Assembly: GCA_963713255.1 (NCBI GenBank)
Contig: CAVQLC010000002.1
Location: 99,746 to 163,745, forward strand
Origin: an uncultured Actinomycetota bacterium
Lineage (GTDB): Bacteria > Actinomycetota > Actinomycetes > Propionibacteriales > Nocardioidaceae
DNA: 64,000 bases
Direction of reading: 5' to 3'
This document shows positions 2,734-56,366 of the stretch, in pieces. A program made the position numbers and the translations under genes. The notes below the pieces were generated by a model, which did no database searches, was not told where the DNA came from, and saw nothing but the letters and a program-made list of their open reading frames with translations. Each line of letters opens with the position of its first letter. Within the stretch, counting starts at the first letter, position 1.

Positions 2734-3717
2734 GTGAGCGAAGCTGATCCATCCTGACGTCGAGCGAGCCGCCCTGGCCCTCGGACTGGACGCCGCCACC
2801 GCCGAGGTCGTCTCCCCCTCGAGTCCCGGGGCGTGTCGACGGTCCTGCTCAAGGGGCCGGCGGTCGCGCTGTACCTCTACCCCGAGAACCCGTCCCTGCG
2901 CACCTACCGCGACATCGACCTGCTGGTGGACCCGCAGGTCTTCGACGCGGCCGAGGCACTGCTGGCCGGGCTCGGGTACTCGCTGCTCGACCGAGGACCT
3001 GAGCCACCGTGAGAAGTCCTGGCTGATGGAGACACCGTGGGAGCGACCGGGGTCACCGCCGACCATGGTCGACCTGCACCGGGCGTTCCACGGCGTGGAC
3101 GACTGGGAGGCGTGGTGGACCCAGATGGACCGCCACACCCAGACCTGCCGGGTGGGTGGGTCGTCGGTGCGGATCCCGGACGCCGCGGGCTGCGCGTTGA
3201 TCGTGGCGCCTGCACGAGACGGCGGTGGGCCGCAACGCGCAGTCCGCGGAGGACCTGGACCGAGCGCTGGCGACGTTCGACGAGGCCGTGTGGGCCGAGG
3301 CGGCGCGACGTGCCGACGACGTGGGACGCGCTCGGGATGGTTCACGCTCGGCCTGTCGCGGCACCCGCTGGGCCGGCTGCTGGCCGAGCGGCTCGACCTG
3401 CCGCGCCGGCTCCCGCTCGAGGTCGCCGCCCGCTCCAGTGACGGTGAGGGCACCGATCCCGCCGAGGTCCGCGCCTGGATCCTCCTGCACCGCCTGGGGC
3501 GGACCCGCTCCTGGCGCGAGCGCGGGCTCACGTTGTGGAGCCTCGCGTTCTCCGCCGGGTCGCTGCGCACGTCGAGACCCCTGGCCAGGCAAGGCTGGTG
3601 GGGGCTGACCTGGTGCGGCTGCAGCGGCCGTTCGAGCTGGCGGCCCGCGCTCCCGGCGTGGCGTACCGGCTGTGGGTCGGGAACCGCAGGGCGCGCTGGT
3701 CCCAGCGGCGCTCCTGA
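2734..3717 (+). pseudogene. NTP_transf_5-type nucleotidyltransferase family protein; at least 4 frameshifts as assembled
   Basis: Own three-frame reading gives ESRGVSTVLLKGPAVALYLYPENPSLRTYRDIDLLVDPQVFDAAEALLAGLGYSLL, then MVDLHRAFHGVDDWEAWW, then a tail LVRLQRPFELAARAPGVAYRLWV (track 3535..3717). It parallels the intact paralog at 30248..31159 (LLHLKGPALLAGL...SSDVDVLVQPDQF). Confidence 0.55.
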
Positions 3718-3720
3718 CCC

Positions 3721-4734
3721 TCAGTCCGGCTCGACCCGTTTCATGCCGACCAGACCGGGCCGGTACGACGGGTCCTCGAGCTCCGCGACGGTCGGATGGC
3801 CGAACATCGGCAACCCCTGGGTGCGCCGGATCAGGCCCCAGACCAGCGGGACCAGCACGACCATCACCAGGCCGACGACGCCGATCAGCACCGGGTGCGT
3901 GTCGTCCTCGCCGGCGCCGAGCGGTCCCCAGCCGGCCTTGTCCAGCAGCGCGACCCCGGACATGGTCAGCACCACGACGATGCCGCGCCGGATGATCGAC
4001 TGCGGCACCCGCGGGGCGATCAGGCTGCCGAGGATGGTGCCCGGGACCGAGCCGATGATGAGCGGGATCGTGACCGACCAGTCGAGGCCGTGGAGGGCGA
4101 TGTTGGAGATGGCCGCGGCCAGCACCAGCGGCACCGCCTGCACCAGGTCCGTGCCGACCAGCTTCACCGCGGTCAGGCCCGGGTAGAGCATCAGCAGGGC
4201 GATCATGATCACCGAGCCGGAGCCCACGCTGGTGATGCCCACGAGCAGGCCGCCCAGGGCCCCGACCAGCAGGGTCGGGATCGGCCGGATCTTGGGGTTC
4301 TCGTCGCCCGGAGGTGCGCCGGACCGGACCCGGCGCAGGTTGATGTAGAGCCGCGCGGCGTACGTCGCGGCGGCGAGGAGCAGCGCGAAGCCGATGCACA
4401 GCTTGAGCACCCGGTCGAGGTCTCCGGGAGGAGCGATCGCGTTGATCAGGTGCGGGCCCAGCAGTGCCATCGGCACCGAGCCGATGATCAGCCACTTGGC
4501 CAGCGTCATGTTGGGCGAGCCCTCGCGCTTGTGCACGACCGCGCCGCCGGTCTTGTAGACGGCGGCCGCCGTGAGGTCCGCGGTGACGACGGTCGCGGCG
4601 TCGCCGACGCCGAGGAAGATCAGGGCCGGCGTCATCAGCGCGCCGCCGCCCATGCCGGTCAGGCCGACGACGGTGCCGACGAAGAAGCCGGCCGCCAGGA
4701 TGGCGAAGAACGTCGTGGTGATCTGGTCAGCCAT
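3721..4734 (-). CDS. TauE/SafE-family anion (sulfite/sulfate-type) permease
   Basis: Intact 337-aa ORF, polytopic and Gly-rich. Repeated halves GLTGMGGGALMTPALIF and GITSVGSGSVIMIALLML are typical of TauE/SafE. Confidence 0.85.
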   Translation of the reverse strand: MADQITTTFFAILAAGFFVGTVVGLTGMGGGALMTPALIFLGVGDAATVVTADLTAAAVYKTGGAVVHKREGSPNMTLAKWLIIGSVPMALLGPHLINAIAPPGDLDRVLKLCIGFALLLAAATYAARLYINLRRVRSGAPPGDENPKIRPIPTLLVGALGGLLVGITSVGSGSVIMIALLMLYPGLTAVKLVGTDLVQAVPLVLAAAISNIALHGLDWSVTIPLIIGSVPGTILGSLIAPRVPQSIIRRGIVVVLTMSGVALLDKAGWGPLGAGEDDTHPVLIGVVGLVMVVLVPLVWGLIRRTQGLPMFGHPTVAELEDPSYRPGLVGMKRVEPD

Positions 4735-4777: not shown

Positions 4778-6565
4778 CTACTGACTCGCCTGAGTTGGTC
4801 GCAGCGCTGGGACGACGATACCGAGCAGGTCGTCGATCCGGGCCTTGCACGTCGCGGCGACCTCGGGACCGCGGCGGTACGGGTCGTCCACGTCGTGGCG
4901 GGGGTCCGCCTGGGACCGGTGCCGGCCGATCTCGGCGACCAGCGCGCGACCGCGGGGGGCGTCGGCGCCCAGCGTGGCCACCGCGTCCGCGAACTGACCG
5001 AGCGTGAACACCTTGCGGAACGCCCCCGGGGTCTCCTCGAGCAGGTAGGTGCGGTGCGCGGCCTCGGCGGTGAGCACCAGGTCGGCCGCCTCGACCAGGT
5101 CGACGGTGGCGCGCCGGCTGCGGAACCTGCGGGCGTCGGTCTCGAAGCCGCCGATCATCTCCTCGCTCATCGGACGGTCGGCGAACCCGTGGGTGCCCGC
5201 GCTGGACACCTCGATCCCGGAGGCCGGACCGAGCAGGCGCCGGGTCGCCAGCTCCATGTACGGCGAGCGGCAGATGTTCGCGGTGCAGACGAAGAGGACC
5301 TTGAGGGGCGGGTTGTCGGCGTGCCCGGGTCTCGAGGCTCGCTCCGCTCGCACCTCGACCACCGGGGTGGCCGCGTCCGTCAGGTCGAGGTAGCCGGCGT
5401 CGCGGAGTGCGACGAGGACGTCGTCGAGGGCGTCCTCGATGGACCGGCCGGTGGTGTCGACGCGCACGGCCGCGTCCTCCGGCACCTCGTAGGGCGAGGA
5501 GATGCCGGTGAACTCCGGGATCTCGCCGCGCCGGGCCTTCGCGTAGAGACCCTTGCGGTCGCGTCGCTCGCACTCCTCCAGCGGGGTGGCCACGTGCACG
5601 AGGAAGAACGCACCGCCGGCCTCCTCGACCATCGCCCGCACCTGTCGCCGGGTCTCGTCGAACGGCGCGATCGGGCTGCACACGGCGACGCCGCCGTGCC
5701 GGGCGATCTCGGCGGCGACCCAGCCGATCCGGCGGATGTTCGTCTCCCGGTCCTCCTTGGAGAACGTCAGCCCCGCCGAGAGGTGCCGGCGGACGACGTC
5801 ACCGTCCAGGCTGGTCACGCTCCGGCCGCCGCGCTCCAGCAGGCGGTCCATCAGCGCCCGCGCGAGCGTGGACTTGCCGCTGCCGGAGAGCCCGGTGAAG
5901 AACAGCACCAGGCCCTGCTCCTCGGGAGCCGGCCGGTCCGCCGTCACGATCGCGGCCAGCTCGTCGGGCAGCTCGCCCCCGTCCACCAGCCCGTGCACGG
6001 GGTCGCCGTCGGCGTAGACGCCGACCACCTGGGCCCCGAGGGCGTGGTCCACGTCCGCGTCGCCGTGGCTCGCGAGCGGGACCACGACGACGTCGGCGGC
6101 CGGGAGCGTGGCCGCGGCGACCAGGGTCGCCCGCACCAGGGCGGTGGGGGAGAGCTCAGGGGTGCCGGTGCCGGCGAGCGCCAGCAGCACCAGCGGCCCA
6201 CGGCCGCGCAGGTCGTCGAGCTGGGTGTCGGTGAGCGCGTCGACGACGGGCACGAAGGTGCGCCCGGCGTACCGCGCGCGGACCTCGGCAGGCGGGAGGT
6301 AGAGGCGGCGGAACGGGCCGTACTGCGCGTGGGTGAGAGGCTCGACGGCCGAGCCCGCGGTGACCCGCGCGAGCGGCAGGCCCTCGGGGTCGACCAGCTC
6401 GACGGACTCGGCCCCGTGCAGCTCCTCGGGCAGGTCGAGCGTGAGCGGGCTGCCGGGCTCGTTGAAGCCGGTGACCGGTGCGGCCGCCCCGGTGACGATC
6501 AGCTCGAGGTCGTCGAGCTCGGTCGGGCTCGGGTGGTGCTGGGGAGGCGTCGGCACGCGGATCAT
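4778..6565 (-). CDS. cysC: fusion protein: sulfurylase-like N-terminal region + adenylylsulfate (APS) kinase + C-terminal low-molecular-weight phosphotyrosine phosphatase
   Basis: Intact ORF 4778..6625; start placed at the internal ATG 6565 (MIRVPTPP), with 6625 as an alternative. APS kinase: FFTGLSGSGKSTLARAL, PEFTGISSPYEVP. LMW-PTP: VLFVCTANICRSPYME (CX5R) and DDPY. Confidence 0.8.
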   Translation of the reverse strand: MIRVPTPPQHHPSPTELDDLELIVTGAAAPVTGFNEPGSPLTLDLPEELHGAESVELVDPEGLPLARVTAGSAVEPLTHAQYGPFRRLYLPPAEVRARYAGRTFVPVVDALTDTQLDDLRGRGPLVLLALAGTGTPELSPTALVRATLVAAATLPAADVVVVPLASHGDADVDHALGAQVVGVYADGDPVHGLVDGGELPDELAAIVTADRPAPEEQGLVLFFTGLSGSGKSTLARALMDRLLERGGRSVTSLDGDVVRRHLSAGLTFSKEDRETNIRRIGWVAAEIARHGGVAVCSPIAPFDETRRQVRAMVEEAGGAFFLVHVATPLEECERRDRKGLYAKARRGEIPEFTGISSPYEVPEDAAVRVDTTGRSIEDALDDVLVALRDAGYLDLTDAATPVVEVRAERASRPGHADNPPLKVLFVCTANICRSPYMELATRRLLGPASGIEVSSAGTHGFADRPMSEEMIGGFETDARRFRSRRATVDLVEAADLVLTAEAAHRTYLLEETPGAFRKVFTLGQFADAVATLGADAPRGRALVAEIGRHRSQADPRHDVDDPYRRGPEVAATCKARIDDLLGIVVPALRPTQASQ

Positions 6566-6623
6566 CCTGCCACCCGGCCGGGTCCCGCCGAGCCGCCCAC
6601 CGGGGCCGACTAGCCTGCCCGGC

Positions 6624-7601
6624 ATGTCTGCTCCAGTGCCGGTGGCCGAGATCGTCCGCTCGGGTTTCGTCGAGGGCCACCACTACGGCTCGGTCGTCGC
6701 CCTGGACCTCGACGGAGCGGTCGCCTGGTCGGTGGGCGTCGTCGACGAGCCGATGCTGCCCCGCTCCTGCAACAAGCCGGTCCAGGCGCTCGGCATGGTC
6801 CGCGCCGGGCTCGACCTGCCGCCCGACCTGCTCGCCCTGGCCTGCGCCTCGCACAGCGGGGAGCCCATCCACATCGAGGGGACGCGGCGCATCCTGGCCC
6901 TGGCGGGCCTCGACGAGGACGCCTTGCAGACCCCGGCGGACTACCCCTTGGACGAGCACGCCCGGGAGCTGGTCATCCGCGCCGGCGGCGGACGCGCGCC
7001 GATCCTGATGAACTGCTCGGGCAAGCACGCCGCGATGCTCGTCACCTGCGTGGTGAACGGGTGGGACACCACGACCTACCTCGACCCCGGGCACCCGTTG
7101 CAGCGGGCGCTGCGCGACACGTTCGGGGAGCTCACCGGCGAGCCGGTGGCCGTGGTCGCCGTGGACGGCTGCGGTGCGCCGCTCTTCTCCGCCTCGTTGG
7201 TCGGCCTGGCCACCGCGTTCCGCCGGATCGCCCTGGGCGTGGACGGCCGGGACGAACCCGACCCCGACGCCCGGCGCGTGGCCGAGGCCATCCGGGCCCA
7301 CCCGGAGTACGCCTCCGGCACGGCCCGCGACGAGGCCGCGCTGCTGCGGGCCATCCCCGGCGCGGTCGGGAAGGCCGGGGCGGAGTCCTGCTACGCCGTG
7401 GCGCTGGCGGACGGCCGCGCGTTCGCGCTCAAGACCGACGACGGCGCCCCCCGGGTGCGGCCGGTGCTGATGGCGGCCGCGCTGGCGCGCAGCGGCGTCG
7501 ACCTCGAGCCGGGGGTGGACACCGAGGCGGTCCACCGCACCGGCGTGCTCGACCTGCTCGGGGGCGGGGTGCGCGTGGGGGAGATCCGCGCCACGTTGTG
7601 A
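6624..7601 (+). CDS. L-asparaginase II-family protein
   Basis: Internal ATG (M98) of track ORF 6333..7601. Reads MSAPVPVAEIVRSGFVEGHHYGSVVALD...PRSCNKPVQALGMV...ACASHSGEPIH...MNCSGKHAAML...VDGCGAP. Confidence 0.8.
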   Translation: MSAPVPVAEIVRSGFVEGHHYGSVVALDLDGAVAWSVGVVDEPMLPRSCNKPVQALGMVRAGLDLPPDLLALACASHSGEPIHIEGTRRILALAGLDEDALQTPADYPLDEHARELVIRAGGGRAPILMNCSGKHAAMLVTCVVNGWDTTTYLDPGHPLQRALRDTFGELTGEPVAVVAVDGCGAPLFSASLVGLATAFRRIALGVDGRDEPDPDARRVAEAIRAHPEYASGTARDEAALLRAIPGAVGKAGAESCYAVALADGRAFALKTDDGAPRVRPVLMAAALARSGVDLEPGVDTEAVHRTGVLDLLGGGVRVGEIRATL

Positions 7602-13281: not shown

Positions 13282-15120
13282 GTGCAGCGCGGGATCTCCA
13301 CGCTGCGGCGACGCCGCACGCGCCTCCTCATCACGTTCGACGTGCTGGTGTGGATGGGTGGCGGGTGCTCGGTCGCGGCGCTGCTGCGTTATCCCGAGCT
13401 GAGGTCAGCCCTCCGTGGGGCTCGGTGCTCGTCATGGCCGCCTGGCATGGGCGTGCTCTACATCGGCCTCGGCATGCTGATCAGGCTGCACGAGGGCCGG
13501 GCTCGCACCGCCAGCTTCGACGAGATGCTGCTGCTCGGGTCGGTCGCCCGCGCTCGCGGTGCGTGGTCTTCGTCGTCCAACCTCTTCAGCACGTACGTGG
13601 CCCGCAGCCTGCCCGCCATCACGACCTTGTGCTTCGTCGTGCTGGCGCCTGTGGCGGGCGGGCTCTGTGGCGGCGGCTGGTGGAGCGAGACGCTCGCTGG
13701 CGGCCGTGCAGCCCGCTCGGACGCGTCGGACGTGCTCCTGGTCGGGGCCGGTGAGGCGGCCCGGGAGCTGATCAGCTCCATGCTGAGGGACCCGAGCACG
13801 ACGTGGCGACCCGTCGGGCATGCTCGACGACGACCCGCGCAAGCAGCATCTCCGGGTGCGCGGCGTGCCGGTGCTCGGCCCGATCGCGCGACCTCGCGGC
13901 CCAGGTCGGGCGGACCGCAGGTCGACAGGGTCGTCCTCGCCATCCCGAGCGCCGGCAACGAGGTGGTCCGCGAGGTCACCCGCATGGCGGCCGCTGCCAA
14001 GGTCGACCTCAAGGTGCTGCCCGCGGTCGACCGAGCTCCTCACCGAGCACGTGGGCATCCGCGACATCCGCGACCTCAACCTCACGGACCTGCTCGGCCG
14101 CAACCAGCTCGACACCGACATCGAGGCCATCGCCGGCTACGTGACGGGCAAGCGGGTCCTGGTCACCGGCGCGGGGGGTCGATCGGGTCCGAGCTCTGCC
14201 GCAGATCGATCGGTTCGCGCCCGCCGAGCTCATCATGCTCGATCGCGACGAGTCCGCCCTGCACGCGGTGCAGCTGTCCTTCCGCGGCCGGGCGATGCTG
14301 GACTCGGACGACGTCGTCCTCTGCGACATCCGGGACGCGCAGCCCCTGACGCAGATCTTCCGGAGGCGTCGGCCCGACGTCGTCTTCCACGCTGCGGCCC
14401 TCAAGCACCTCCCGATGCTGGAGCAGTACCCCGCCGAGGCGGTCAAGACCAACGTCATCGGCACCCGCAACGTCCTCGACGCGGCTCGCGCCGCCGGCGT
14501 CCGCCGCTTCGTCAACATCTCCACCGACAAGGCCGCCAACCCGGAGAGCGTGCTCGGCTACTCCAAGCGCGTGGCTGAACGCATCACGGCGACCTACGCC
14601 GAAGACGCAGACGACGCGGTCTACGTCTCCGTGCGCTTCGGGAACGTCCTGGGCAGCCGCGGGTCGGTGTTGACGGCGTTCGCCGACCAGATCGCCCGCG
14701 GCGGGCCGGTGACGGTGACGCACCGATGTCACCCGCTACTTCATGACGATCGAGGAAGCGTGCCAGCTCGTGGTCCAGGCGGGAGCGATCGGCGAGCCCG
14801 GTCAGGCCCTGGTGCTCGACATGGGGGAGGCGGTGCGGATCGTGGACGTCGCGCACCAGCTGATCGACCTGGCCGGCCGCGAGATCGACGTCGAGTTCAC
14901 CGGCCTTCGCGAGGGAGAGAAGCTGCACGAGGACCTGTTCGGTGACGGCGAGCCGCACGACATCAGGCCCGACCATCCCCTGATCTCGCACGTGCCAGTG
15001 CCACCGGTTCCACGGGCCGAGGTCTCGGCCCTGTCCACCCGGGCAGCAACCCGGAGATCATCGCCGGCCTGGCCGCCCTGTGCTTCGACGAAACCCAGCG
15101 GCGTGACCCGCGCGGGTTAG
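13282..15120 (+). pseudogene. membrane-anchored CapD/WbpM/PglF-like NDP-sugar 4,6-dehydratase; at least 5 frameshifts as assembled
   Basis: Joined frames read VLLVGAGEAARELISSMLRD, MLDDDPRKQHLRVRGVPVLG, VLAIPSAGNEVVREV, KRVLVTGAGGSIGSELCRQI, VVFHAAALKHLPMLEQYPAEAVKTNVIGT, FVNISTDKAANPESVLGYSKR, RFGNVLGSRGSV and [16 protein letters not shown]. Confidence 0.75.
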
Positions 15121-27592: not shown

Positions 27593-28104
27593 CTCCCGTC
27601 GCCCTGGTCCCGGGCGTGCCCGCCCTGCTGCCGGAGCACGCGTCGCTGACCGACCCGGTGGCCGACCTGCGCGCGGCCTGCCGGACCGCGGTGGGCCGGA
27701 TCGCCGGCCCCGGGAGCGCGGTGCGGGTGGTGGCCGGCCCGCTGGGGCTCCGGGTCGCCGAGCACCTGCTGGAGGAGGTCGCCGCCCGCGCGACCGGCGA
27801 CGCGTCGTACGACGCCGTGCTGGTGGTCGGGAACGGCAGCGCCCGCCGGACCGAGAAGGCCCCCGGTCACCTCGACGAGCGCGCGGCGGCCTTCGACGAC
27901 GCCGTGGACCGGGCCCTGCGGGAGACCGACCGGGCGGCCCTGCGGGCCGTCGACCGCGACCTCGCCGGAGACCTGCTCGCCGAGGTCGACGGCCTCCCCG
28001 ACCTCGCCGCCGCGGTCCCGGCCGGGGTCGCCGCCGACGTGCTCTACGCCGACGACCCGTTCGGCGTGCAGTACTGGGTGGTCGTCTGGGACGCGGTCCC
28101 ATGA
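27589..28104 (+). CDS. conserved hypothetical protein
   Basis: GTG (V76 of track ORF 27364..28104) with GTGA overlap on folP. The 171-aa product has protein-like composition and is translationally coupled on both sides. I recognise no family. Confidence 0.5.
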   Translation: MTPVALVPGVPALLPEHASLTDPVADLRAACRTAVGRIAGPGSAVRVVAGPLGLRVAEHLLEEVAARATGDASYDAVLVVGNGSARRTEKAPGHLDERAAAFDDAVDRALRETDRAALRAVDRDLAGDLLAEVDGLPDLAAAVPAGVAADVLYADDPFGVQYWVVVWDAVP

Positions 28105-28766
28105 GGGTGCTGCTGGGGCCGGAGACCGAGGACCTGCGGACGCTCTACGCGGTGCCGCGCACGCCGTGGTTCCGGCTGAACTTCGTCAGCACCGTGGACG
28201 GCGCGGCCCAGGGGAAGGACGGGAAGAGCGGCGGGATCAACAACGCGGCCGACAAGGCGGTGTTCGACACCCTGCGCGGCCTCGCCGACGCGGTGGTGGT
28301 CGGAGCGGGGACGGCGCGCGCCGAGGGCTACCGGCCTGCGGCCGTGCCGATCGTCGTGGTCACCCGGTCCGGTGACGTGCCCCGGCTGCTGCGCGGGGCC
28401 GACCCCGGCCGCGTCCTGGCGGTGACCTGCGCCGCGTCCCCCGGCCTCGACGAGGCCCGGGCGGTCCTCGGGGACGCGCACGTGATCGTGCTCGGCGACG
28501 ACGCCGTCGACCTCGGCGCGCTGCCCGGCGCGCTGGCCGGGCGCGGTCTGCCCCACGTGCTGTGCGAGGGCGGCCCGCACCTGGCCCGGGACCTGCTCGC
28601 GGCGGGCGTGGTGGACGAGCTGTGCGCGACGACGGTGCCGCGCCTGCTCGCGGGCGCCGCGCTCGGGATCACCGACGGGGACGGCATCGACGTCCCGCTC
28701 CGGCTGCACGTCCTCCTCGAGGACGACGGCACCCTGCTCGCACGCTGGCTCGTCGCGCGGCCCTAG
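28101..28766 (+). CDS. RibD C-terminal-domain / dihydrofolate-reductase-family reductase
   Basis: M212 of track ORF 27468..28766, with ATGA overlap upstream. Reads NFVSTVDGAAQGKDGKSGGINNAADKAVFDTLRGLADAVVVGAGTARAEGY...LCEGGPHLARDLLAAGVVDELCATTVP. Confidence 0.7.
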   Translation: MRVLLGPETEDLRTLYAVPRTPWFRLNFVSTVDGAAQGKDGKSGGINNAADKAVFDTLRGLADAVVVGAGTARAEGYRPAAVPIVVVTRSGDVPRLLRGADPGRVLAVTCAASPGLDEARAVLGDAHVIVLGDDAVDLGALPGALAGRGLPHVLCEGGPHLARDLLAAGVVDELCATTVPRLLAGAALGITDGDGIDVPLRLHVLLEDDGTLLARWLVARP

Positions 28767-29816
28767 AGGCGGACGACGAGACCCGAGCCGACCAGCGCGT
28801 CCACGGCGTCCTGCACGATCCGCGGCGCGTCCGGGTGCTCCCCGTGCCGCAGCACCGAGGCCGCCACGAGCGTGTCGAGGTCCTCGGGCTGTTCGAGGGC
28901 CAGCCACACGGTCGCCCCCAGCTGTTGGAGGCGGTAGCTCATGCCTGCCACGAGAACGGTGACGGAGTCACCGACCTCCACCGCGTCGTGCCAGGGGACC
29001 CGGGCGAACAGTCCGCCAGGACCCTCGGGCGCGTCGGCTCTCCCCGGGTGGTGGCGAAACGACTCACCCTGGCCCGGCTCCGCGGCCATCAGCGCGGCGA
29101 GGTCGTCCACGTGGTCGGCGATCTCGGTGTAGCGCAGCAGCCACGGCCCCCCACCGGCCTGCAGGATCCGGGTCAGCTCGAGCAGGGGCGCGTCGAACGA
29201 GGTGACGAAGGAGACCTGGGGAAGGACGAGCTCGAGCGCCTCGTCGAGCGGGAGCAGCTCCAACCCGGTGGTGGTGTGGTCGGCGTTGCGGTCGAGGAGG
29301 ACGAGCCCGCGCAGGGTGGCTTCGGGAGGCGCCACCAGGAGTCCGAGCTCGTCCGGCCCGTGCTGCGACTTGTGGCGCGGCTGGTCGCCGTCGATGACGA
29401 CGGACAACGGCTTGGGGTAGGCGAGCACGCTCAGGTCGGCACCGACCGACACCGTCTCGTCGCTGAGGTAGCCCAGCCGTGCTCCGAGGACCCGGGCCGC
29501 GGTCGTCTTGCCGGTCCCCGAAGCCGCCACGAGCGCGAGGGCCCGGCCGTGGGGGTCGGTCACGCCGGCGGCGTGCAGGCTCATCCGCACGCCCTCGCGC
29601 TGCTGGAGGGCGGCGAGGGTGACCCGCGAGGCGAGCGTGTAGTCGGTCCGGTCCGCATCGGCGTCCGGCGCGGTCACCCGAGCGTCGACGACGGCCTCGG
29701 CGGTGCGCGGAGTCGTGCTCGGTGAGGGTCCGGGACCACTGCTCGAGCCATCGGCCCCGCGTGGGCTCGTCGGGTGGGAGCACGGCGACGCGCACGCCGA
29801 AGGCGTCCAGCACCAA
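28763..29816 (-). pseudogene. HPr-kinase-related P-loop kinase with C-terminal PqqD-like domain; one frameshift near 29700 as assembled
   Basis: Start is VLDAFGVRVAVLPPDEPTRGRWLEQWSRTLTEH (track 29064..29816). It continues in track 28763..30178 with SLHAAGVTDPHGRALALVAASGTGKTTAARVLGARLGYLSDETV (P-loop). The C-terminal ~85 aa, GMSYRLQQLGATVWLALEQPEDLDTLVAASVLRHG...VDALVGSGLVVRL, are PqqD-like. Confidence 0.6.
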
Positions 29817-29951
29817 GGGCTGGACGCGATCGTGGTCCCGGTGCTCCGAGTCGGCGCTGGTGGTGATGGGCGCGAGTCTAGGGCGACCGCACCGGGCCTC
29901 GGCGCGGTTTCGGACCGGTCCGGGCGTACGACGCCCGCGCGGCCCGTCCGG

Positions 29952-30251
29952 CTAGGCCGAGGGCGTGGGGACGACCAGTCCGCGGGCGACCAACGTCTCG
30001 ACGAACCGGGCCACGTCGTCGGCGATGGCGTCGCGCTCCGCACCGGACAGGTCCGCGGCATGGCCGACGATGTCGTCCACGGTCCCTCCCTGGGCGACGC
30101 CGTGCCAGATGGCCCACGCTCCGTCCTGGAGCAGCAGCGGCTCCCCGTCCGGGAGCCGGGCGACGTACACCTCCGCACGCGCCTCCCCGACGTGCTCGGC
30201 GTCGACCCACGCGACGTCGGCGGCCACGGCGTACCGATCCGGGCCCGTCAC
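29952..30251 (-). CDS. PqqD-family protein (RRE-like)
   Basis: Last 99 codons of chimeric track ORF 29952..32483; the GTG overlaps the upstream stop (GTGA). Reads AWVDAEHVGEARAEVYVARLPDGEPLLLQDGAWAIWHGVAQGGTVDDIVGHAADLSGAERDAIADDVARFVETLVARGLVV. Confidence 0.65.
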   Translation of the reverse strand: MTGPDRYAVAADVAWVDAEHVGEARAEVYVARLPDGEPLLLQDGAWAIWHGVAQGGTVDDIVGHAADLSGAERDAIADDVARFVETLVARGLVVPTPSA

Positions 30252-31159
30252 GGTGCCGGGCGCTTCCGGAGGTGCGCCCGCGCCATCCGGGCGCTCTCGC
30301 GGACGAGCTTCCCGATCCTGCCGAGCTGGGCGGTCAGGACATCGGCCCGGGTGGGCGTGCGGCCGAGCTCGATCCGCAGGTGGTCGCGGTTGACGCGGGC
30401 GGCGGAGACGACGACCCGCCAGCGCCCGCTCGGGGAGGGGGCCGCCCGGTAGCGCGCCCGCCACTCGTCGAGCCGGCCGCCACCGTCGCGGTAGAAGTGC
30501 CAGAGGGCGTAGCTCGGGTCGCCGCGGTGCTCCTCGAGGTGACCGAGGGCGGCGGCGAGAGCGACCTGTCCACCGATCCGACCCGCGAGGTCGATCACGG
30601 CAGCGCGCTGCTGCGGGCTCTGCTCGTTCCAGGTCAGCTCGACGTCGCGGTAGCCGGGCGACCTGGCCGAGTGGAGGAGCAGGACGAGGAGCTGGGCGGT
30701 GCGCCCGGGCACCGGACAGGGGTAGTGGGCGATGGGCTGGAGGAACGACTCCTCGCTCAGGGCGCTGAACGTGTCGGCGGGGCTGGCCGTGGCCCCCGGC
30801 CAGCGGGCATGGAGGTCGGCGTAGCCCCAGTGCGGATGCCACCAGTTGGCGGCGTGCTCGAAGGCCGAGCCCGAGCTCACGTGCGAGTACCGCTCCCAGC
30901 CGTGGTCGCGGAGGGCGCCCTCCATGGTGGAGAACTGGTCGGGCTGCACCAGCACGTCGACGTCCGAGCTGAGCCTGCCGGGCGCGCGCAGCCCGGCCAG
31001 GAGGGCCGGCCCCTTGAGGTGCAGCAACGAGACCCCGACCTCCTCGGCGATCCGTTGCACGACGGGGTGGGCGAGCTGCACCCGGGCGAAGGTGGGGATC
31101 TCCACGGGCGACGAGGACACCTGGCCCCGAGGGGGGTCGGTGACGGGCTCCTCGCGCAT
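30248..31159 (-). CDS. NTP_transf_5-type nucleotidyltransferase family protein
   Basis: Intact 303-aa ORF: VSLLHLKGPALLAGLRAPGRLSSDVDVLVQPDQFSTMEGALRDHGWE...WHPHWGYADLHARWPG. Confidence 0.65.
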   Translation of the reverse strand: MREEPVTDPPRGQVSSSPVEIPTFARVQLAHPVVQRIAEEVGVSLLHLKGPALLAGLRAPGRLSSDVDVLVQPDQFSTMEGALRDHGWERYSHVSSGSAFEHAANWWHPHWGYADLHARWPGATASPADTFSALSEESFLQPIAHYPCPVPGRTAQLLVLLLHSARSPGYRDVELTWNEQSPQQRAAVIDLAGRIGGQVALAAALGHLEEHRGDPSYALWHFYRDGGGRLDEWRARYRAAPSPSGRWRVVVSAARVNRDHLRIELGRTPTRADVLTAQLGRIGKLVRESARMARAHLRKRPAP

Positions 31160-31208: not shown

Positions 31209-32715
31209 GTGACCTTCCTCGACTTCCTGCGGCTGACGCGCGCCAACTTCTTGGTGATCTTCGGCTGCGTGACGCTGGGAGTCCTGGCGATGTTCGCGTA
31301 CACGTTGCGCCAGCCGGTCGTCTACACCGCCACCTCCCAGGGGTACGTCGTGGTCGGCACCGCCGACACGTCCGGTGAGCTGCTCACCAACATGACCCTC
31401 CAGGAGCGGGCGGCAGGGACCTACGCCAACCTGGTGACCGACCGCCGGGTGGGCGAGCAGGTCGCGGAGCTGCTCGGTCTCGACCTGTCGCCGGAGGCGA
31501 TCGCGGGCAGCCTGAGCGCCTCGGCGGGCGAGGACAGCAGCCAGATCACCGTGTCCGCCAGCGCCGGCACCCCGACGGAGGCACGGGACCTGGCCAACGC
31601 GGCCGTCTACGCACTCGGCGAGGTCATCCACGACGTTGAGGGGTCTGACCTGATCAGGCTGGAGTCCAGCGCGAAGGCGGTGCTCCCGGGGGCTCCCTCG
31701 TCGCCCGACTACCAGCGCAACCTCCTGATGGGTGCGCTGGCGGGGCTGGTGCTGGGCTACGCCGTCGCGCTGCTGCGCCGGACGGTCGACCGCAAGGTCC
31801 GCACGGTGGCACAAGTGGAGCAGGCGGGGATCGCGTCGGTGGTCGGCATCGTGCCGGTCGCTGACCCGTTGTCCCGCCGGAGCCGCGGGGTCCGAGAGGA
31901 CCTGGGAGTCGTGGCGGAGGCCTTCCGGCAGCTCCGCACCAACCTTCGCTTCGTCGACGTCGACCACCCGCCTCGGAGCATCGTGGTGACCAGCGCGAAC
32001 GCCGCACGAGGGCAAGTCGACGGTCTCCTCCAACCTGGCTCGGATGATGGCCGCGGCCGGGCAGCCCACGCTGCTCATCGACGCCGACCTGCGGCGACCC
32101 AGCCTGGCCACGACCTTCGACCTCGATCCCGCCGTCGGGCTGACGCAGGTGCTGGTCGGAGACCTGCGGTCGTCCGACGTCCTGCAGGAGACCCGGACGC
32201 CCAACCTGCAGGTGATCACCGCGGGGCGCATCCCACCCAACCCCAGTGAGCTGCTGGGCTCCCAGCGCATGCACGCCCTCGTGGACGAGCTGAGCAAGGA
32301 GTTCATGGTCATCCTGGACGCGCCGCCCCTCCTGCCGGTGACCGATGCCGGGCTGCTGACCGTCACGAGCGACGGTGCGCTCCTGGTGATCGCCGTCGGC
32401 AAGACCGCCGTGGACGAGGTCGTGCTGTGCCGCAAGGTGCTGGACCAGGTCGGCGGCCGGCTGCTCGGCGGCGTGCTGAACATGGCCCCGAGCCGCGGGC
32501 TCGGCGCCGTGGTCTACGGCTACGGCGGGGGGAGCTTCACCCAGGGATACGGAGAGCCGGCCGGCCGGCAGCGCGGCCGGCGCGGAGCGAAGGCCCACCG
32601 GGACAACAACGACGAGGTGTCCGAAGAGGTTCTGGTGGCCGGAGCGAAGAAGGCGGAGGTGGCGACCGAGCCGCCGGGGTCCGGCAAGTCGCGCTCGTCC
32701 AAGCCCGTCGGCTAG
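31209..32715 (+). pseudogene. polysaccharide co-polymerase / BY-type tyrosine autokinase (Wzc-like); one frameshift just before Walker A (about 31995-32005)
   Basis: Track 31209..32249 gives the N-terminal TM helix and Wzz-like domain up to RSIVVTSANA. The shifted frame (track 32044..32715) gives EGKSTVSSNLARMMAAAGQPTLLIDADLRRP, PPNPSELLGS, ILDAPPLLPVTDA and a YGYGGGSFTQGYG tail. Confidence 0.8.
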
Positions 32716-32786: not shown

Positions 32787-33646
32787 GTGCGCAGCCGGTA
32801 CGTCGTGGTCTGGGTCGTGCTGCTCGTCGCCCTGAACGCTGCCATGGTGTGGTACCTGCGGGACCGCTTCGCCCATCCGCCCGAGCCCTCGGCGTCCGTC
32901 GGCCCCGCCCTGGTCCCCGCCCCGGTCCGCCGACGCCGCCACCAAGGTCGACGGCCCGGTGCTGATGGCGGGCGCGACCGACGGGAGCGTGATCCAGGTG
33001 GCGCGCGGTGACTGCGAGGGTCGCGAGCCGGCGAGGACCTGGGTGGCGCGGGGGACGGAGCCGGCCGGGCAGGTGACCGTGCCCGGCCTGTCCGAGGCGC
33101 TCGCCGTCGGGCTCACCGAGGCCGGGTGGTGGGTGATCGGCACCGACGGGACCTGTGCAGTGACCGCCTGGTCGAGCGACTCGCGGGCCGGGATCGAGTG
33201 GCGCAACGCGAAGCTTCCGGTCGACGCCTGGTACCTGGATCCGGTCTCGCCCGGTCGGGTCATGTCGCCGCGGGGATCGGTCCGAGTGGCATCCGGCTGT
33301 GAGGCCACCTGGGTGCAGGCCGTGGGACAGCAGGTCTACGCCCTGTGCGCGGACGGGCGCGCCCTGAGCACGGACCGCACCGACGCGGCGGTTCGTCCCG
33401 ATCGACGGGGCCGAGTCCGTCGTCGCCATGGCCGCCGCCCCGGGCGGCACGCTGGCGCTGTTGACGACGACATCCGAGTGCGGCGCGGGGCTCCTGGTCA
33501 CCGTCGATGGTGCGGCCACCGACGAGTCGTGCATCAGCCGCACCAAGGAGCCCCTCGGCGTCGCGTGGACCGGAGACACCCTGGTCGCCCAGGTCGACAC
33601 CGACCTGCGTCGACCAGTCACAGGGCTGGCAGCCCCGACTCTGACC
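32787..33646 (+). pseudogene. hypothetical membrane-anchored/exported protein; at least 2 frameshifts, 3' end uncertain
   Basis: GTG 32787 gives VRSRYVVVWVVLLVALNAAMVWYL (signal anchor). Protein-like sequence continues in track 32959..33681 and 33428..35104 (AMAAAPGGTLALLTTTSECGAGLLVTVDG). I recognise no family. Confidence 0.35.
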
Positions 33647-35101
33647 TCAGTACGCGCCGCGAGCGGCGACGACCGCGCTGACCGTCTTGAGGAGGATGAC
33701 CAGGTCCTGGACCATCGACCAGTTGTCGACGTAGTAGAGGTCGAGCCGGACGGTGTCCTCCCAGGTCAGGTCCGAGCGACCCGAGATCTGCCACAAGCCC
33801 GTGAGGCCCGGGCGGACGTGCAGGCGGCGGGTGGCGTCGGTCTCGTAGCGGAGCACCTCGGACGGCAGCGGTGGGCGCGGGCCGACCAGGCTCATCTCGC
33901 CCCGCAGGACGTTGACCAGCTGGGGCAGCTCGTCGATCGAGTAGCGCCGCAGCCAGCGGCCCGGACCGGTCACCCGCGGGTCCACCCGCATCTTGAAGAG
34001 CACGTCCTGCCCGTCGGCCCCGAGGGACGGCAGGATCTGCTCGGCCTCCAGCACCATGGTGCGCAGCTTGAGGCACTCGAAGCTCTTGCCGTCGCGACCC
34101 ACGCGGGTCTGCCGGAAGAGCACCGGTCCGCCGTCGTGCAGCTTGATCCGCAGCGCCGACCAGAGCCACAGCGGCGCGGTGAGCACCAGCAGGGCCAGGG
34201 AGCCGACGATGTCGAAGACCCGCTTGGCCCAGTGGGCGGCGTCCTGGGCCCGTCCGTGGCCGATGTAGACGAGCGGCAGGCCGGCGACCGGACGCATCTC
34301 CACGCGACCGGCGGCGACGTCGGTGAGGCTGGGCGCGACCGCGATCTGCAGGTCCCGCTGCCCCTCGAGCGCCCACGCCGTCTGGCGCAGCGAGCTGCCG
34401 GGAGCGAAGGCACCCTCGGCGATCAGGAGGGTGTCGACCTGGCGACCCGCGAGGACCTCGGCGACGTCCGCGGTGCGCCCCAGGATCGGGATGCCCGTGC
34501 GGGTCTCGGGGTACGGGTGGTCGTTGGCCGTGACGCAGCCGATGATCGAGTAGCCGAGCCACGACTCGCGCTGGAGCACGTCGGCGAGCGCCTCGACGTG
34601 CCGCGGCGCCCCGGCGATCAGGATCCGCCGGGACAGCCGACCCCGGGACCGGAGCCGCTGGATGACCCGGCGGCCGGCGCACCGGCTGAGCAGCAGCAGC
34701 GGGATCCCGAGCGCGAACAGCAGCACGTAGAAGCCGCGCGACAGCGGGAACCGGGCCAGGTAGCAGCCGATCCCGACGAGGCCGGCGGCGGCCAGCGACG
34801 CGGTGAAGACGCGGCGGTACTCCTCGGCCCCGGCCGCGAAGTGCGAGTCGTCGTAGGCGCCGCTGATGACGAGAGCGGCCAGCCAGCCGACGACGATGAA
34901 GAGGCCGGCAGCGCTGACGTTCTCAGGGATGTCACCGACCGTCTCGAACATCGGCAGCGTGTTGCGACCGACGGCCGCGATCAGGGTGACCCCCACGATC
35001 ACCAGCAGGTCGGCCGCGGCCGTCGTGAGTGCGAGTGGCGAGCGCGCGCGAGATCGACGAACTCCTTGGTCGACGCGCGCGGACGCAAACGTTTTCGACA
35101 T
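33647..35101 (-). CDS. polyprenyl-phosphate glycosyl-1-phosphate transferase (WbaP/EpsB-type priming sugar transferase)
   Basis: Intact 484-aa ORF with N-terminal TM helices. Motifs: KRVFDIVGSLALLVL, LFRQTRVGRDGKSFECLKLRTM, DPRVTGPGRWLRRYSIDELPQLVNVLRGEMSLVGPRP, RPGLTGLWQISGRSDL. Confidence 0.9.
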   Translation of the reverse strand: MSKTFASARVDQGVRRSRARSPLALTTAAADLLVIVGVTLIAAVGRNTLPMFETVGDIPENVSAAGLFIVVGWLAALVISGAYDDSHFAAGAEEYRRVFTASLAAAGLVGIGCYLARFPLSRGFYVLLFALGIPLLLLSRCAGRRVIQRLRSRGRLSRRILIAGAPRHVEALADVLQRESWLGYSIIGCVTANDHPYPETRTGIPILGRTADVAEVLAGRQVDTLLIAEGAFAPGSSLRQTAWALEGQRDLQIAVAPSLTDVAAGRVEMRPVAGLPLVYIGHGRAQDAAHWAKRVFDIVGSLALLVLTAPLWLWSALRIKLHDGGPVLFRQTRVGRDGKSFECLKLRTMVLEAEQILPSLGADGQDVLFKMRVDPRVTGPGRWLRRYSIDELPQLVNVLRGEMSLVGPRPPLPSEVLRYETDATRRLHVRPGLTGLWQISGRSDLTWEDTVRLDLYYVDNWSMVQDLVILLKTVSAVVAARGAY

Positions 35102-55352: not shown

Positions 55353-56366
55353 CTAGTGCTGGTGGTCGTGCTCGTGGTCGTGACCGGGCTGGGCGTCCGC
55401 GAGCTGGTCGAGGATGTCCTGGACCATGGTCTCCATCGGGGTCCTCGCCGGAGACGGGTCCGCCGGCGAGGTAGCCGTCCGCCCCGAGCAGCACGGCCGA
55501 CGGGCGTGCCGAAGCCCCCGAAGACGCGGGTGACGTTCATGTCGGGCTCGAAGAGCGTGGTCTCGGTGCCGTGCACCAGCTTCGGCAGCCCGGCGTGCGG
55601 CACGAAGTAGACCGCGTGGACGGCCACGACGTCGTCCAGCTCCGATGCCCACCGGTCCAACCGGGAGCCGACGCGCTCGCACGGACCGCAGCCCGGGCTG
55701 AGGAACACCAGCAACCGGGCGCGGGTGCTCGACAGCTCGCGCAGGGTCCAGCGCCGGCCGTCTGCGTTCTCGAGGACGCCGTACGGGATCGGCTCGCGGT
55801 CGTAGTCCAGGGCATCGCCGTCCCCGTCCGGACGCACGTGGTCCGGGACCGCGGAGGAGCGTGCGACGAGCCAGGTGAGCACGACCGCGATCGACGACGA
55901 CGCAGAGCCAGGCCACGTCGGTCGACGTGAAGTCGGCGAGCCCGCCGATCACGTCCACCCCGCGGGCGGCGGACACCAGCGCGACCACGGACAGCCCGAC
56001 GAGGAGGGTGTTGCGGGCCAGGGTCCACCCGTCGACCAGGTGGCCGCCCAGCTTGCCGAAGCAGGCGCACGACACCGGCGGGTCGAACGTCAGGGCGCGC
56101 GCGATGAGCAGCCAGTACGTCGTGAAGAGCAGCAGCGTCACGCCGGACGCCACCACGAGCAGCGGGCCGCGGGCCAGCAGCAGCGCGAGGCCCAGCACGA
56201 TCTCGACGTACGGCAGCGCCGCGGCCCCGACGGCAGGGGACACGAACGGCACCCGCAGCGCGGTGAACATGTCGGCCGTGGCCACCCGGTCGGACACCTT
56301 GGCGGCGCCGCTGACGAGGAGGACCCCGGCCAGCAGGAGGAAGGGGACCACGAGCGGCGCGGTCAC
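55353..56366 (-). pseudogene. MauE/DoxX-like membrane domain fused to a thioredoxin-like (CGPC) domain with His-rich tail; about 3 frameshifts
   Basis: Track 55353..56366 gives the TM part ([24 protein letters not shown]...SCACFGKLGG). Track 54944..55882 gives the Trx part (ARLLVFLSPGCGPCERV). Track 54400..55494 is a bridging piece. The tail is METMVQDILDQLADAQPGHDHEHDHQH. Confidence 0.55.

Follow-up and report, generated by a model that had tools for sequence, protein, structure and literature searches.

A putative RRE-fused HprK-like kinase and a nucleotidyltransferase/PqqD pair beside a BY-kinase glycan locus in a Nocardioides-like bacterium

To our knowledge, lasso-peptide tailoring is the sole role established by experiment for HprK-like kinases and NTP_transf_5 enzymes, and the presence of an RRE domain is regarded as a sign of a RiPP cluster. 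The window analysed here, a stretch of 64,000 nucleotides of DNA from a Nocardioides-like bacterium, encodes an HprK-like kinase, an NTP_transf_5 nucleotidyltransferase (NTase) and PqqD-type domains next to the head of a sugar-polymer/glycan locus. What do such tailoring parts do at this site, and do they belong to the lasso module at positions 1-3717 of the same window, as an earlier note had proposed? The features on which the answer depends are the following:

31209-32715, plus strand: divergent BY-kinase (weak Wzz match, AAA_31/ParA-type ATPase, Tyr cluster)
30248-31159, minus strand: NTP_transf_5 (PF14907) nucleotidyltransferase, 303 aa (Pfam profile)
29952-30251, minus strand: stand-alone PqqD/RRE-type protein, 99 aa (PF05402 profile)
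29817-29951, no strand: gap between the PqqD and kinase genes, in the window free of a VanZ-like gene
29709-29816, minus strand: N-terminal segment of the kinase in frame A, (L)VLDAFGVRVAVLPPDEPTRGRWLEQWSRTLTEHDS (frame plot, translation, alignment, P0001)
29708, minus strand: extra G that shifts the kinase frame (comparison with L081 and L087)
28763-29707, minus strand: main segment of the kinase in frame B, with the predicted HprK/PEPCK-fold P-loop core (motifs, fold, profiles)
28766-29008, minus strand: putative C-terminal PqqD/RRE-like domain of the kinase (weak PF05402 match, TbiB1, hhalign)

The three co-directional genes described in the earlier note are all present at the coordinates given there, and codon-position GC supports their frames. 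The GTGA overlap of the NTase and PqqD genes at stop and start can be read directly from the sequence, in agreement with the coupling claimed before. The kinase gene ends at 28763 and starts with GTG at 29813 or TTG at 29816; depending on this choice, the gap to the PqqD gene, previously put at about 135 nt, measures 135-138 nt, and a search of 29817-29951 for promoter and terminator consensus sequences gave no match. The cassette is indeed divergent from the BY-kinase gene, whose start at 31209 lies on the opposite strand at a distance of 49 nt from that of the NTase. Chance is ruled out for the trio: the kinase has at least 538 homologues, the NTase has 208, and synteny extends to 39 genomes at species level. 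The three genes are real and conserved.

The kinase gene, which had been described as present and HprK-like, is both of these, but it is not a single open reading frame in the window. Residues 1-36 are encoded at 29813-29709 and the remainder at 29707-28763 in another frame, and the G at 29708 is extra relative to the intact homologue of 349 aa (P0001, from locus L081; intact kinases generally have about 350 aa). The same extra G is found in one close relative (L087) and not in the other (L081), so that either the gene is truly disrupted or a read error recurs systematically. The BY-kinase gene is frameshifted as well, by an extra G at 32002-32003 that is private to the window. The assemblies are noisy: the window differs from L081 by 22 single-base indels in 11.5 kb and from L082 by 127 gaps in 12.7 kb. 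The frameshift at 29708 may have left this strain without an active kinase.

The kinase core shows an HAAG motif (29564-29575), a P-loop AASGTGKTT (29501-29527; Walker A part ASGTGKTT at 29501-29524), and the motifs YLSDETV (29450-29470) and PKPLSV (29399-29416); in the alignment, the family-invariant residues G6, W26 and R28 fall in the N-terminal segment. Its H-x-x-G, GTGKTT and the D-E pair of LSDET occupy the positions of the H-G, P-loop and D-D of HprK, and alignments show invariant catalytic-type residues for the kinase as well as for the NTase. The structural model forms a single rigid body (pLDDT 94.9, pTM 0.90) and suggests a P-loop fold of the PEPCK/HprK superfamily, with PEP carboxykinases as top matches (E 1.7e-5) and HprK/P structures (2qmh, 1kkm, 1jb1, 3tqf) also found by Foldseek (TMt 0.5-0.59). 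At the level of sequence families the matches are weak and consistent: 26 of 30 family members match the HprK-related kinase A model TIGR04352 (best E 8e-11), eight of the 30 match TIGR04355 (HprK-related kinase B) and six match TIGR04249 (ScmC), while the window kinase itself reaches 19 bits with TIGR04352, far under the 200-bit cut-off of this model. The HprK/P equivalog TIGR00679 matched neither the window kinase nor its closest relative P0001, PF07475 gave a single weak match (E 0.028) in one of five family members scanned, and PF27840 (ScmC) has precomputed matches on many kinase homologues and none recorded on the window protein, P0001 or P0002. Fold and profiles together thus agree with an HPr-kinase-like core, and the searches with the HprK-related A/B, PqqD and PF14907 models that had been suggested for this cassette uphold all three family assignments. 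The kinase appears to be a distant relative of HprK-related kinase A and ScmC, with scores far below the family cut-offs.

That the last residues of the kinase (about 85 in the earlier note, about 85-95 in our analysis) form a second PqqD-like domain is borne out by several lines of evidence. An hhalign comparison with the family of the stand-alone PqqD1 gave 93% probability (E 2.4e-7, 80 columns), a profile search of the PDB retrieved TbiB1 (E 0.004), and DSSP of the model shows three strands (274-296) followed by three helices (298-342), so that a winged-helix architecture is combined with remote homology to PqqD/RRE proteins. PF05402 matches this domain with E 0.006-0.03 (1e-4 in P0053) at 15-23 bits, under its gathering threshold of 23.4. 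A loop motif HG-x-HP-D/E-A is strongly conserved in it (G324 and H326 do not vary, and at least 90% of members have P327); we judge such a motif to be atypical for RREs. We propose that the kinase carries a fused, putatively peptide-docking PqqD/RRE-like domain.

The other two proteins score above the Pfam gathering thresholds, in agreement with their previous assignment: the NTase matches NTP_transf_5 (PF14907) with 47.3 bits (threshold 31.2, E 2.5e-12) and the 99-aa protein matches PF05402 with 33.2 bits (threshold 23.4, E 6.8e-8). All 120 NTase homologues listed carry PF14907, and among the matches listed with genus-level names all are from Nocardioides save two oddly named records. All NTase orthologues share a pol-beta-type motif KGP...SSDVDVLV, followed further on by D..H (invariant residues K49, G50, S64, D66, D68, D115, H117); predicted structure (AF2, pLDDT 87.6) and alignment place the enzyme in the pol-beta-type fold with G-x and D-x-D carboxylates. 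Foldseek matches of the NTase model include LnuA, MenT1, ANT(2'')-Ia and FKRP, with which the protein shares the fold and the G-x...D-x-D metal site, but identity is about 15%, a helical C-terminal region of about 130 residues is additional, and its coupled partner is a PqqD protein. The ANT(2'') structures 5cfs and 4xje, which are also matched, are the templates given for PsmN (PMC6993621, PMC8498205). For the stand-alone PqqD, a profile search of the PDB retrieved TbiB1, 9x90_B and PqqD; 17 of 18 orthologues weakly match lasso_PqqD_Strm and three match TIGR04353 (best E 1.8e-4), which gave no match with the window protein.

The kinase belongs to a large family of about 1000 clusters at 50% identity (1017 at E<=1e-30), which is found in 267 species genomes from three actinobacterial families and is annotated throughout as hypothetical; its members are always full-length, with kinase and RRE-like part. 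We inspected 80 kinase loci with up to 10 kb of DNA on each side, including a few short contigs. The trio, regarded as a co-conserved cassette in the earlier note, is conserved in 39 of these loci, all of Nocardioides type; the remaining 41 (from Intrasporangiaceae, Dermacoccaceae and some Nocardioides), among them a few short contigs, have no NTase or PqqD gene within 10 kb of the kinase, so co-conservation holds for a part of the family. The NTase, PqqD, a VanZ-like membrane protein and the BY-kinase occur together in each of the 39 NTase-positive loci, where the BY-kinase, the constant neighbour of the NTase/PqqD pair, heads a polyprenyl-phosphate sugar-transferase/glycosyltransferase (GT) locus; sugar transferase and GT were found in most of the 39, a few contigs ending too early to tell. 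The VanZ-like gene lies on the opposite strand between PqqD and kinase in 34 of the 37 loci where it was called, and downstream of the kinase in L001-L003; the window itself has no such gene. As this gene splits PqqD from the kinase in most Nocardioides loci, the trio does not form a single operon. Of its components, the kinase is the one that is older, more widespread and separable. It sits in a conserved folP/ribD-C/acyl-CoA-dehydrogenase region, its neighbourhood is a housekeeping one in many genomes, and in Flexivirga the gene order is kinase, LMW-PTP, BY-kinase, with the NTase absent. In 79 of the 80 loci only one member of the kinase family was found among the genes called within about 6.5 kb of the kinase. 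The earlier note had seen no candidate substrate peptide in or beside the cassette, and our search for a conserved small substrate ORF near the kinase in the 80 loci found none either.

The cassette resembles several known systems without belonging to any of them. In pseudomycoidin, PsmK and then PsmN act on one residue, the C-terminal Ser, which is phosphorylated before the phosphate is capped with a hexose (PMC6993621, PMC8498205). As with PsmK/PsmN and with PadeK of paeninodin, a kinase of the HprK superfamily, an NTase of an uncharacterised family whose fold resembles ANT(2'') and an RRE of PqqD type are found in one locus; unlike in those systems, an RRE domain is fused to the window kinase, a D-E pair takes the place of the D-D metal site, the set adjoins a BY-kinase glycan locus, and precursor, cyclase, B2 protease and exporter were not found at the window locus, so that the combination of kinase and NTase with precursor, cyclase and B2 protease that marks a lasso pathway is lacking in the cassette. 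The HPr-rel-A system is associated with exopolysaccharide loci. This HprK-related/PqqD system, which the earlier note had mentioned, does exist in NCBIfam, as TIGR04352 (kinase A), TIGR04353 (PqqD chaperone) and TIGR04355 (kinase B). It likewise combines a kinase with PqqD, and TIGR04352 is the best-scoring profile family for the window kinase; however, the window locus has a single kinase below the kinase A cut-off, with a fused RRE, and neither a second kinase B nor a TIGR04353-type PqqD, and its taxa are actinobacterial. Scores so far under the cut-offs make the cassette proteins relatives of HPr-rel-A and not members. The same kind of distance separates the kinase from ScmC (SynChlorMet cassette protein; PF27840), to which some of its homologues are linked by the PF27840 and TIGR04249 matches, but whose radical-SAM/SPASM partners are absent at the window locus. 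With HprK/P and PEP carboxykinase the kinase shares the P-loop kinase fold and the order of H-x-G, Walker A and acidic pair; unlike HprK/P, it has a different N-terminal domain, an extra RRE-like domain, no family-level sequence match, and no HPr or PTS link.

Does the cassette complement the lasso module? Genes of PF14907 and PF05402 families occur at both sites, the part of the lasso module inside the window has no kinase, and kinases and NTases of these families modify lasso peptides elsewhere (PMC6993621, PMC8498205), all of which is consistent with the earlier proposal of a phosphorylated-lasso pathway split over two sites, with the cassette supplying the kinase and an extra B1 and NTase. 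The lasso module, however, extends beyond the left edge of the window, and the intact homologous clusters L083, L084 and L085 (gene order N-B1-C-A-methyltransferase-K-ABC-B2) encode their own HprK-like kinase of 302-305 aa between the methyltransferase and the ABC transporter, as does the 97%-identical relative L082, at 13587-14532, just past the window edge. We infer that the lasso cluster of the window genome probably has such a kinase too, this part of it lying outside the window. The lasso precursors of L083 and L085 lack a C-terminal Ser, their last residue being G, P or D (indels make the C-terminus of the window's own precursor unreadable), and the two NTases and two PqqD proteins of the cassette and the lasso site are distant paralogues only; the cassette kinase shares about 25% identity over 128 columns with a lasso-type kinase of the same lineage. 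Furthermore, lasso B1 is rare, with 18 homologues compared to at least 538 (about 1000 clusters) for the widespread and syntenic cassette kinase; in the 80 loci, the 10 kb on either side of the kinase contain no relative of lasso B1 (PqqD2), and the called kinase neighbours that were inspected include no gene of Asn-synthase or transglutaminase type. The idea that the cassette completes the lasso cluster situated 26 kb away was therefore rejected, as the intact lasso homologues carry their own kinase, and the split pathway is now very improbable.

Tentatively, and with rather less than even confidence, we favour a non-RiPP, RRE-guided kinase and NTase/PqqD unit that would work like PsmK/PsmN on a target probably tied to the BY-kinase glycan locus. 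This reading assumes two linked units built from RiPP-type tailoring parts without RiPP core genes: the RRE-fused kinase of about 350 aa with its HprK/PEPCK-like fold, distantly related to HprK-related kinase A/ScmC and to PadeK/PsmK, and the NTP_transf_5 NTase translationally coupled to a separate PqqD/RRE protein. Each RRE domain would dock an extended peptide segment of the target, the kinase would use ATP to phosphorylate a Ser/Thr hydroxyl, and the NTase would attach a sugar- or nucleotide-derived cap to that phosphate or to a hydroxyl, in the manner of PsmK and PsmN at the C-terminal Ser of pseudomycoidin. We infer that the substrate is a peptide or protein, that the kinase acts before the NTase and that both are linked to the glycan machinery. 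Inheritance of the NTase/PqqD pair with VanZ and the BY-kinase (39 of 39), and the Flexivirga kinase beside LMW-PTP and BY-kinase, suggest that the target lies in the envelope-glycan machinery; most likely it is a protein or peptide of the BY-kinase-controlled machinery and not a lasso peptide. Counting against our proposal are the lack of a conserved small ORF near the kinase in 80 loci, the 41 loci in which the kinase has no NTase/PqqD, the VanZ gene that splits the set, profile matches of HprK type that are all far under the cut-offs, and an NTase fold that fits FKRP-type glycan phosphotransferases and MenT toxins as well. In addition, the folP/ribD-C/acyl-CoA-dehydrogenase synteny might explain the adjacency to the glycan locus, which could be mere synteny.

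Several of these points would equally suit two unrelated neighbouring units, which we consider a doubtful though serious alternative: a widespread RRE-fused kinase that regulates a target elsewhere, and an NTase/PqqD/VanZ set belonging to the BY-kinase glycan locus, in which the NTase, like LicD/FKRP or ANT, would move a phospho-alditol, phosphosugar or nucleotidyl group to the glycan, to its lipid carrier or to a protein of the locus, without the kinase acting first. Since the 41 loci encode the kinase without NTase/PqqD, the two enzymes need not act on the same target, and the strict association of NTase, PqqD, VanZ and BY-kinase, the division of the cassette by VanZ in most genomes, the similarity of the NTase fold to FKRP, a CDP-ribitol phosphotransferase acting on glycans, and the seeming restriction of NTase homologues to Nocardioides among the matches listed, compared to three families for the kinase, all speak for separate units. 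Yet kinase, RRE and NTP_transf_5 recur together in lasso clusters, including the one in the same genome lineage, and in HPr-rel-A, a recurrence that points to a functional triad; the partner to which the NTase is coupled is a PqqD of peptide-chaperone type and not a glycan-handling protein, and in Flexivirga the kinase adjoins BY-kinase and LMW-PTP even without the NTase. Quite improbable is a metabolic or regulatory role for the kinase, as an HprK/PEPCK-like enzyme whose substrate would be HPr, a sugar or another small molecule and whose C-terminal winged helix would be structural or regulatory and not an RRE. The top fold matches, the single rigid body of the model, the housekeeping neighbourhood and the atypical C-terminal loop would fit such an enzyme, but its nearest families (HprK_rel_A, HprK_rel_B, ScmC, lasso kinases) are all found in peptide-modification cassettes, homology links its C-terminal domain with lasso B1 proteins and with the PqqD encoded nearby, and the TIGR00679 and PF07475 results argue against it. 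Hardly credible is a toxin-antitoxin or defence-like, MenT-like two-gene module: the compact, overlapping arrangement of NTase and PqqD and the match to the MenT1 toxin (TMt up to 0.66) are offset by the fixed position beside the BY-kinase in 39 species-level genomes, unlike that of mobile modules, by the NTase belonging to PF14907 and not to AbiEii/DUF1814, and by the partner being a PqqD peptide chaperone.

What is clear is that a large family of RRE-fused kinases is kept as a chromosomal gene without any RiPP core, and that in Nocardioides this kinase is accompanied by an NTase/PqqD pair whose occurrence follows that of a BY-kinase glycan locus. It is an unlikely but conceivable extension of our proposal that RRE machinery has been repurposed, with kinase and NTase placing a phospho- or phospho-glycosyl/nucleotidyl mark on a segment of a BY-kinase or polysaccharide-machinery protein, for example the BY-kinase tail; envelope-glycan synthesis in Nocardioides and related actinobacteria would then be subject to a new level of regulation. 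Should a cellular protein or peptide of the envelope machinery prove to be the target, genome-mining tools that call such loci RiPP clusters would need to be used with caution, and RRE-guided modification would extend to regulation.

Codon-position GC plots of the window (GC content 73%), ORF maps and Pfam searches locate three genes, all on the minus strand, in the interval from a RibD_C gene to a divergent BY-kinase gene. The gene anatomy described in the earlier note, with its GTGA coupling, its gap of about 135 nt and its divergent BY-kinase, proved correct:

28101-28766, plus strand: RibD_C gene (PF01872)
stop at 28763, minus strand: P-loop kinase, 135-138 nt past the PqqD gene
29952-30251, minus strand: PqqD protein of 99 aa (PF05402, 33.2 bits against a cut-off of 23.4)
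30248-31159, minus strand: nucleotidyltransferase (NTase) of 303 aa, NTP_transf_5 (PF14907, 47.3 bits against a cut-off of 31.2)
31209-32715, plus strand: BY-kinase, divergent from the NTase gene

Direct reading of the sequence shows that the TGA of the NTase gene overlaps the GTG of the PqqD gene (...accGTGAcg...), and 49 nt separate the NTase ATG (31159) from the BY-kinase GTG (31209) on the opposite strand. A scan of the cassette for promoters and terminators found neither. Just downstream of the BY-kinase gene, at 32787-33681 (plus strand), lies a frame-broken gene for a clade-specific membrane-anchored protein of about 290 aa that has no Pfam hit; its counterparts are located at 6205-7092, 6268-7155 and 6290-7168 of the kinase loci L001, L002 and L003, respectively.

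The kinase ORF is interrupted in the window by a phase switch near 29700, visible in the frame plot: residues 1-36, (L)VLDAFGVRVAVLPPDEPTRGRWLEQWSRTLTEHDS, are read in one frame, the ~313 residues after them in a second. The intact homologue P0001 (349 aa, 98% identical), encoded by a contig of a close relative (L081), reads ...LTEHDSRTAEAVV..., and DNA alignment revealed one extra G at 29708 in the window. The earlier note was right about the location and family of this gene, but the extra G breaks the single ORF it had assumed. The same G is present in L087, a 589-kb contig of another close relative from another sample, and absent from L081. Substitutions, however, put the window closer to L081 (48 shared differences versus 23 in a three-way comparison), and L087 and the window, both with the extra G, are thus not each other's closest relatives. 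Judged from these sequences, the extra G would be either a real lineage-level disruption, possibly ancestral and repaired or mis-assembled in L081, or a context-specific basecalling error, which would then be systematic in the context CTCCGCGCACC. A BY-kinase frameshift at 32002-32003 was found in the window alone in the three-way comparison. Many other genes shift frame midway (e.g. at ~9846, 29708, 32002, ~37800, ~39947, ~48947, ~55892, ~61219 and ~61705), and single-base indels amount to 0.2-1% relative to two public contigs of 97-98.5% identity (L081: 98.5% identity, 22 single-base indels in 11.5 kb; L082: 97.3% identity, 127 gaps in 12.7 kb). This suggests error-prone long-read metagenome assemblies, and gene calls in the window therefore need frame correction.

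A search with the frame-corrected kinase retrieved 538 homologues, each full-length at about 350 aa and hardly any of them named, and the kinase profile matched 1017 clusters of a 50%-identity library at E<=1e-30; among the best 150 of these, almost all align along nearly the whole profile. The family alignment contains the invariant motifs H-A-x-G, S-G-x-G-K-T-T, Y-x-S/T-D-E-T and K-P-L-S-V. An AlphaFold model built from 30 sequences (pLDDT 94.9, pTM 0.90) matched PEP carboxykinases (E 1.7e-5) in Foldseek searches, and also the HprK/P catalytic domain (2qmh, 1kkm, 1jb1, 3tqf; TMt 0.5-0.59); HprK/P and PEPCK form one fold group in structural classifications. TIGR04352 ('HprK-related kinase A') matches 26 of 30 family members (best E 8e-11), TIGR04355 matches eight and the ScmC model six of the 30, in each case far under the cut-off, and many homologues carry a precomputed match to PF27840, a model named 'ScmC'. 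On the basis of these fold matches and sub-cut-off scores, the kinase belongs to the HprK superfamily as a distant member and lies outside every curated family; the HprK-like assignment of the earlier note thus holds for the superfamily, by fold and weak profile matches, but not for any family within it.

The last ~90 residues of the kinase give sub-threshold PqqD matches. A PDB profile search with this region found the lasso RRE TbiB1 (E 0.004), hhalign aligned it with the stand-alone PqqD family over 80 columns (93% probability, E 2.4e-7), and its model consists of three strands followed by three helices, all of which bears out the second PqqD-like domain proposed for the kinase C-terminus. 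The stand-alone PqqD itself matches TbiB1, 9x90_B, PqqD and TfuB1 in PDB profile searches; 17 of 18 orthologues weakly match the lasso B1 model NF033530 and three of 18 match TIGR04353, the 'HPr-rel-A system PqqD family peptide chaperone'. In the NTase, K49-G50, S64-D66-D68 and D115-H117 are invariant among orthologues, and its model (pLDDT 87.6) matches LnuA, MenT1, ANT(2'')-Ia (including 5cfs and 4xje) and FKRP. PsmN of pseudomycoidin has been reported on the same ANT(2'') templates (PMC6993621).

With each species represented by one genome, a scan detected kinase relatives in 267 genomes; the 80 loci analysed come from Nocardioidaceae, Intrasporangiaceae (Phycicoccus, Knoellia, Janibacter, Oryzobacter, Tetrasphaera) and Dermacoccaceae (Flexivirga, Allobranchiibius, Branchiibius, Luteipulveratus). 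Neighbourhood counts agreed across tblastn, called-gene clustering and HMM searches of six-frame ORFs. NTase, PqqD, a VanZ-like membrane protein (PF04892) and BY-kinase occur together in 39 of the 80 loci, all Nocardioides-type, most of which have, in addition, genes for a polyprenyl-phosphate sugar transferase and for a GT4 glycosyltransferase. In the other 41 loci no NTase or PqqD accompanies the kinase within at most 10 kb to either side (a few of the contigs are short), and it is surrounded by lineage-specific housekeeping genes such as ClpC and Ku/LigD. Four Flexivirga loci have LMW-PTP and BY-kinase genes as kinase neighbours, and in some Nocardioides (e.g. loci L013 and L022) the kinase lies beside the sugar transferase, with BY-kinase, NTase, PqqD and VanZ jointly missing at this site. 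Among the NTase homologues listed, all genus-level names are Nocardioides, with the exception of two oddly named records. Given these names and the 39 versus 41 split, the three-gene cassette of the earlier note, whose members do co-occur in the 39 loci, is a widespread kinase combined with a separate, Nocardioides-specific set of NTase, PqqD, VanZ and BY-kinase. VanZ lies between PqqD and kinase on the opposite strand in most of the 39 loci; the gap between these two genes usually includes it and is not conserved in length; in the clade of the window (L001-L003) it lies downstream of the kinase, and a homology search of the window found no VanZ-like gene. The window's compact co-directional arrangement is derived.

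In many Nocardioides BY-kinases (L005-L077) a conserved ...REAYSTAGKGRRR... patch comes after a Tyr cluster (GYGGYGGY), together with a Lys/Ala/Glu-rich tail. This YSTAGKGRRR patch, conceivably a docking or modification site, is not found in the window's clade, whose BY-kinase has a different, Arg-rich tail (32600-32715 in the window). The gene after the kinase in L013 has a homologue 26 kb away in the window (55353-56366, minus strand; split over two frames). Its product, probably MauE/DoxX-like, has a Cys-x-x-Cys motif and, in its N-terminal part, several hydrophobic segments.

The earlier note had also joined the cassette to the lasso genes at the left edge of the window, as a phosphorylated-lasso pathway split over two sites. 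These genes comprise:

about 1-207: start of a PRMT-like methyltransferase gene
about 213-361: precursor-like ORF, leader Y-x-x-P-E-L...Y-G...V-Q, core start GPGGSVAD
2344-2676: strong lasso PqqD (E 5.6e-16)
2833-3012: lasso NTP_transf_5 fragment
within 1-3717: frame-broken Asn-synthase pieces

Three intact homologous clusters (L083, L084, L085) encode, in this order, NTP_transf_5, PqqD (B1), Asn synthase, one or two precursors, methyltransferase, a 302-305-aa protein, ABC transporter and Transglut_core3. The 302-305-aa protein is an HprK-like kinase (TIGR04352, E 2e-7 and 2e-6), which in L083 also matches TIGR00679 (E 0.0025) and PF07475 (E 0.004) and in L085 faintly PF27840 'ScmC'; hhalign aligned it with the cassette kinase family at 90% probability, including the P-loop and a G-D-D motif. 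In L082, a close relative that shares 97% identity with the window across 12.6 kb, the lasso kinase lies at 13587-14532, followed by ABC transporter and B2, a position about 1-2 kb past the window's left edge. Since L082 and the homologous clusters have their own kinase, the lasso cluster appears from these sequences to be self-contained, and the two-site pathway is refuted. The precursors in L083 and L085 have G, P or D as their last residue instead of Ser (the C-terminus of the window's own precursor is obscured by indels in both assemblies and thus not reliably reconstructed), lasso B1 has only 18 detectable homologues, and the two NTases and two PqqDs of the window are distant paralogues, which further speaks against a split pathway. 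That the two NTase/PqqD pairs arose by recent duplication was likewise ruled out (about 30-35% identity over short stretches).

The lasso cluster of this layout (window 1-3717, running past the left edge; L082 8927-16788; L083-L085) is rare. Its precursors have a Y-x-x-P-E-L-x-x-Y-G-x-I/L-T-x-x-V-Q leader and G-x-x-G-x-x-x-D-type cores, with the ring probably formed by G1-D8; as they lack a C-terminal Ser, the target site of kinase and NTase would differ from that in paeninodin and pseudomycoidin. Directly beside the cluster, 4778-6625 (minus strand) encodes a 615-aa protein in which an APS-kinase domain is fused to an LMW phosphatase/ArsC-like domain at the C-terminus (PF01583 and PF01451 in the L082 gene call), adjoined by a TauE-type sulfite exporter (3721-4734, minus strand).

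Folds, motifs, gene coupling and co-inheritance are direct observations, from which we tentatively propose an RRE-guided kinase acting with NTase and PqqD. By analogy with PsmK/PsmN and PadeK, the kinase would hold a peptide segment with its RRE-like domain and phosphorylate a hydroxyl on it, and the NTase, guided by its own PqqD, would then add a sugar- or nucleotide-derived group. The target would be a component of BY-kinase-controlled glycan machinery, which is favoured by the strict co-inheritance of NTase and PqqD with BY-kinase and by the BY-kinase and LMW-PTP genes beside the Flexivirga kinase. The main alternative, somewhat less likely in our view, takes the kinase and the NTase/PqqD/VanZ set as functionally independent neighbours, as their separation in 41 loci would allow, with a LicD/FKRP- or ANT-like NTase acting on a glycan or a protein of the locus. 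A metabolic role of the kinase of the HprK/PEPCK type, compatible with its fold, is improbable, and a MenT-like toxin module, which the MenT1 match brings to mind, is the least credible reading of all.

In its mode of working the cassette most resembles the K/N/B1 tailoring enzymes known from lasso clusters of the paeninodin and pseudomycoidin type; however, RiPP core genes are lacking at the cassette, which does not qualify as a member, and a lasso link is very improbable. When small ORFs (15-90 aa) lying outside large genes were clustered across the 80 loci, over the stretch between 2.6 kb upstream of the kinase start and about 1.5 kb beyond the kinase end, no conserved substrate peptide emerged, the sole groups being Arg/Pro-rich out-of-frame noise, in agreement with the lack of a substrate ORF first noted at the cassette itself. 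The bioinformatically defined HPr-rel-A system also resembles the cassette, which differs in scores far under the family cut-offs, a single kinase and an RRE fused to it, and falls outside that system as well. Literature searches found no paper on the RRE-fused kinase family or on the cassette. The cassette kinase represents a large RRE-kinase family that is found outside RiPP clusters and is so far uncharacterised.
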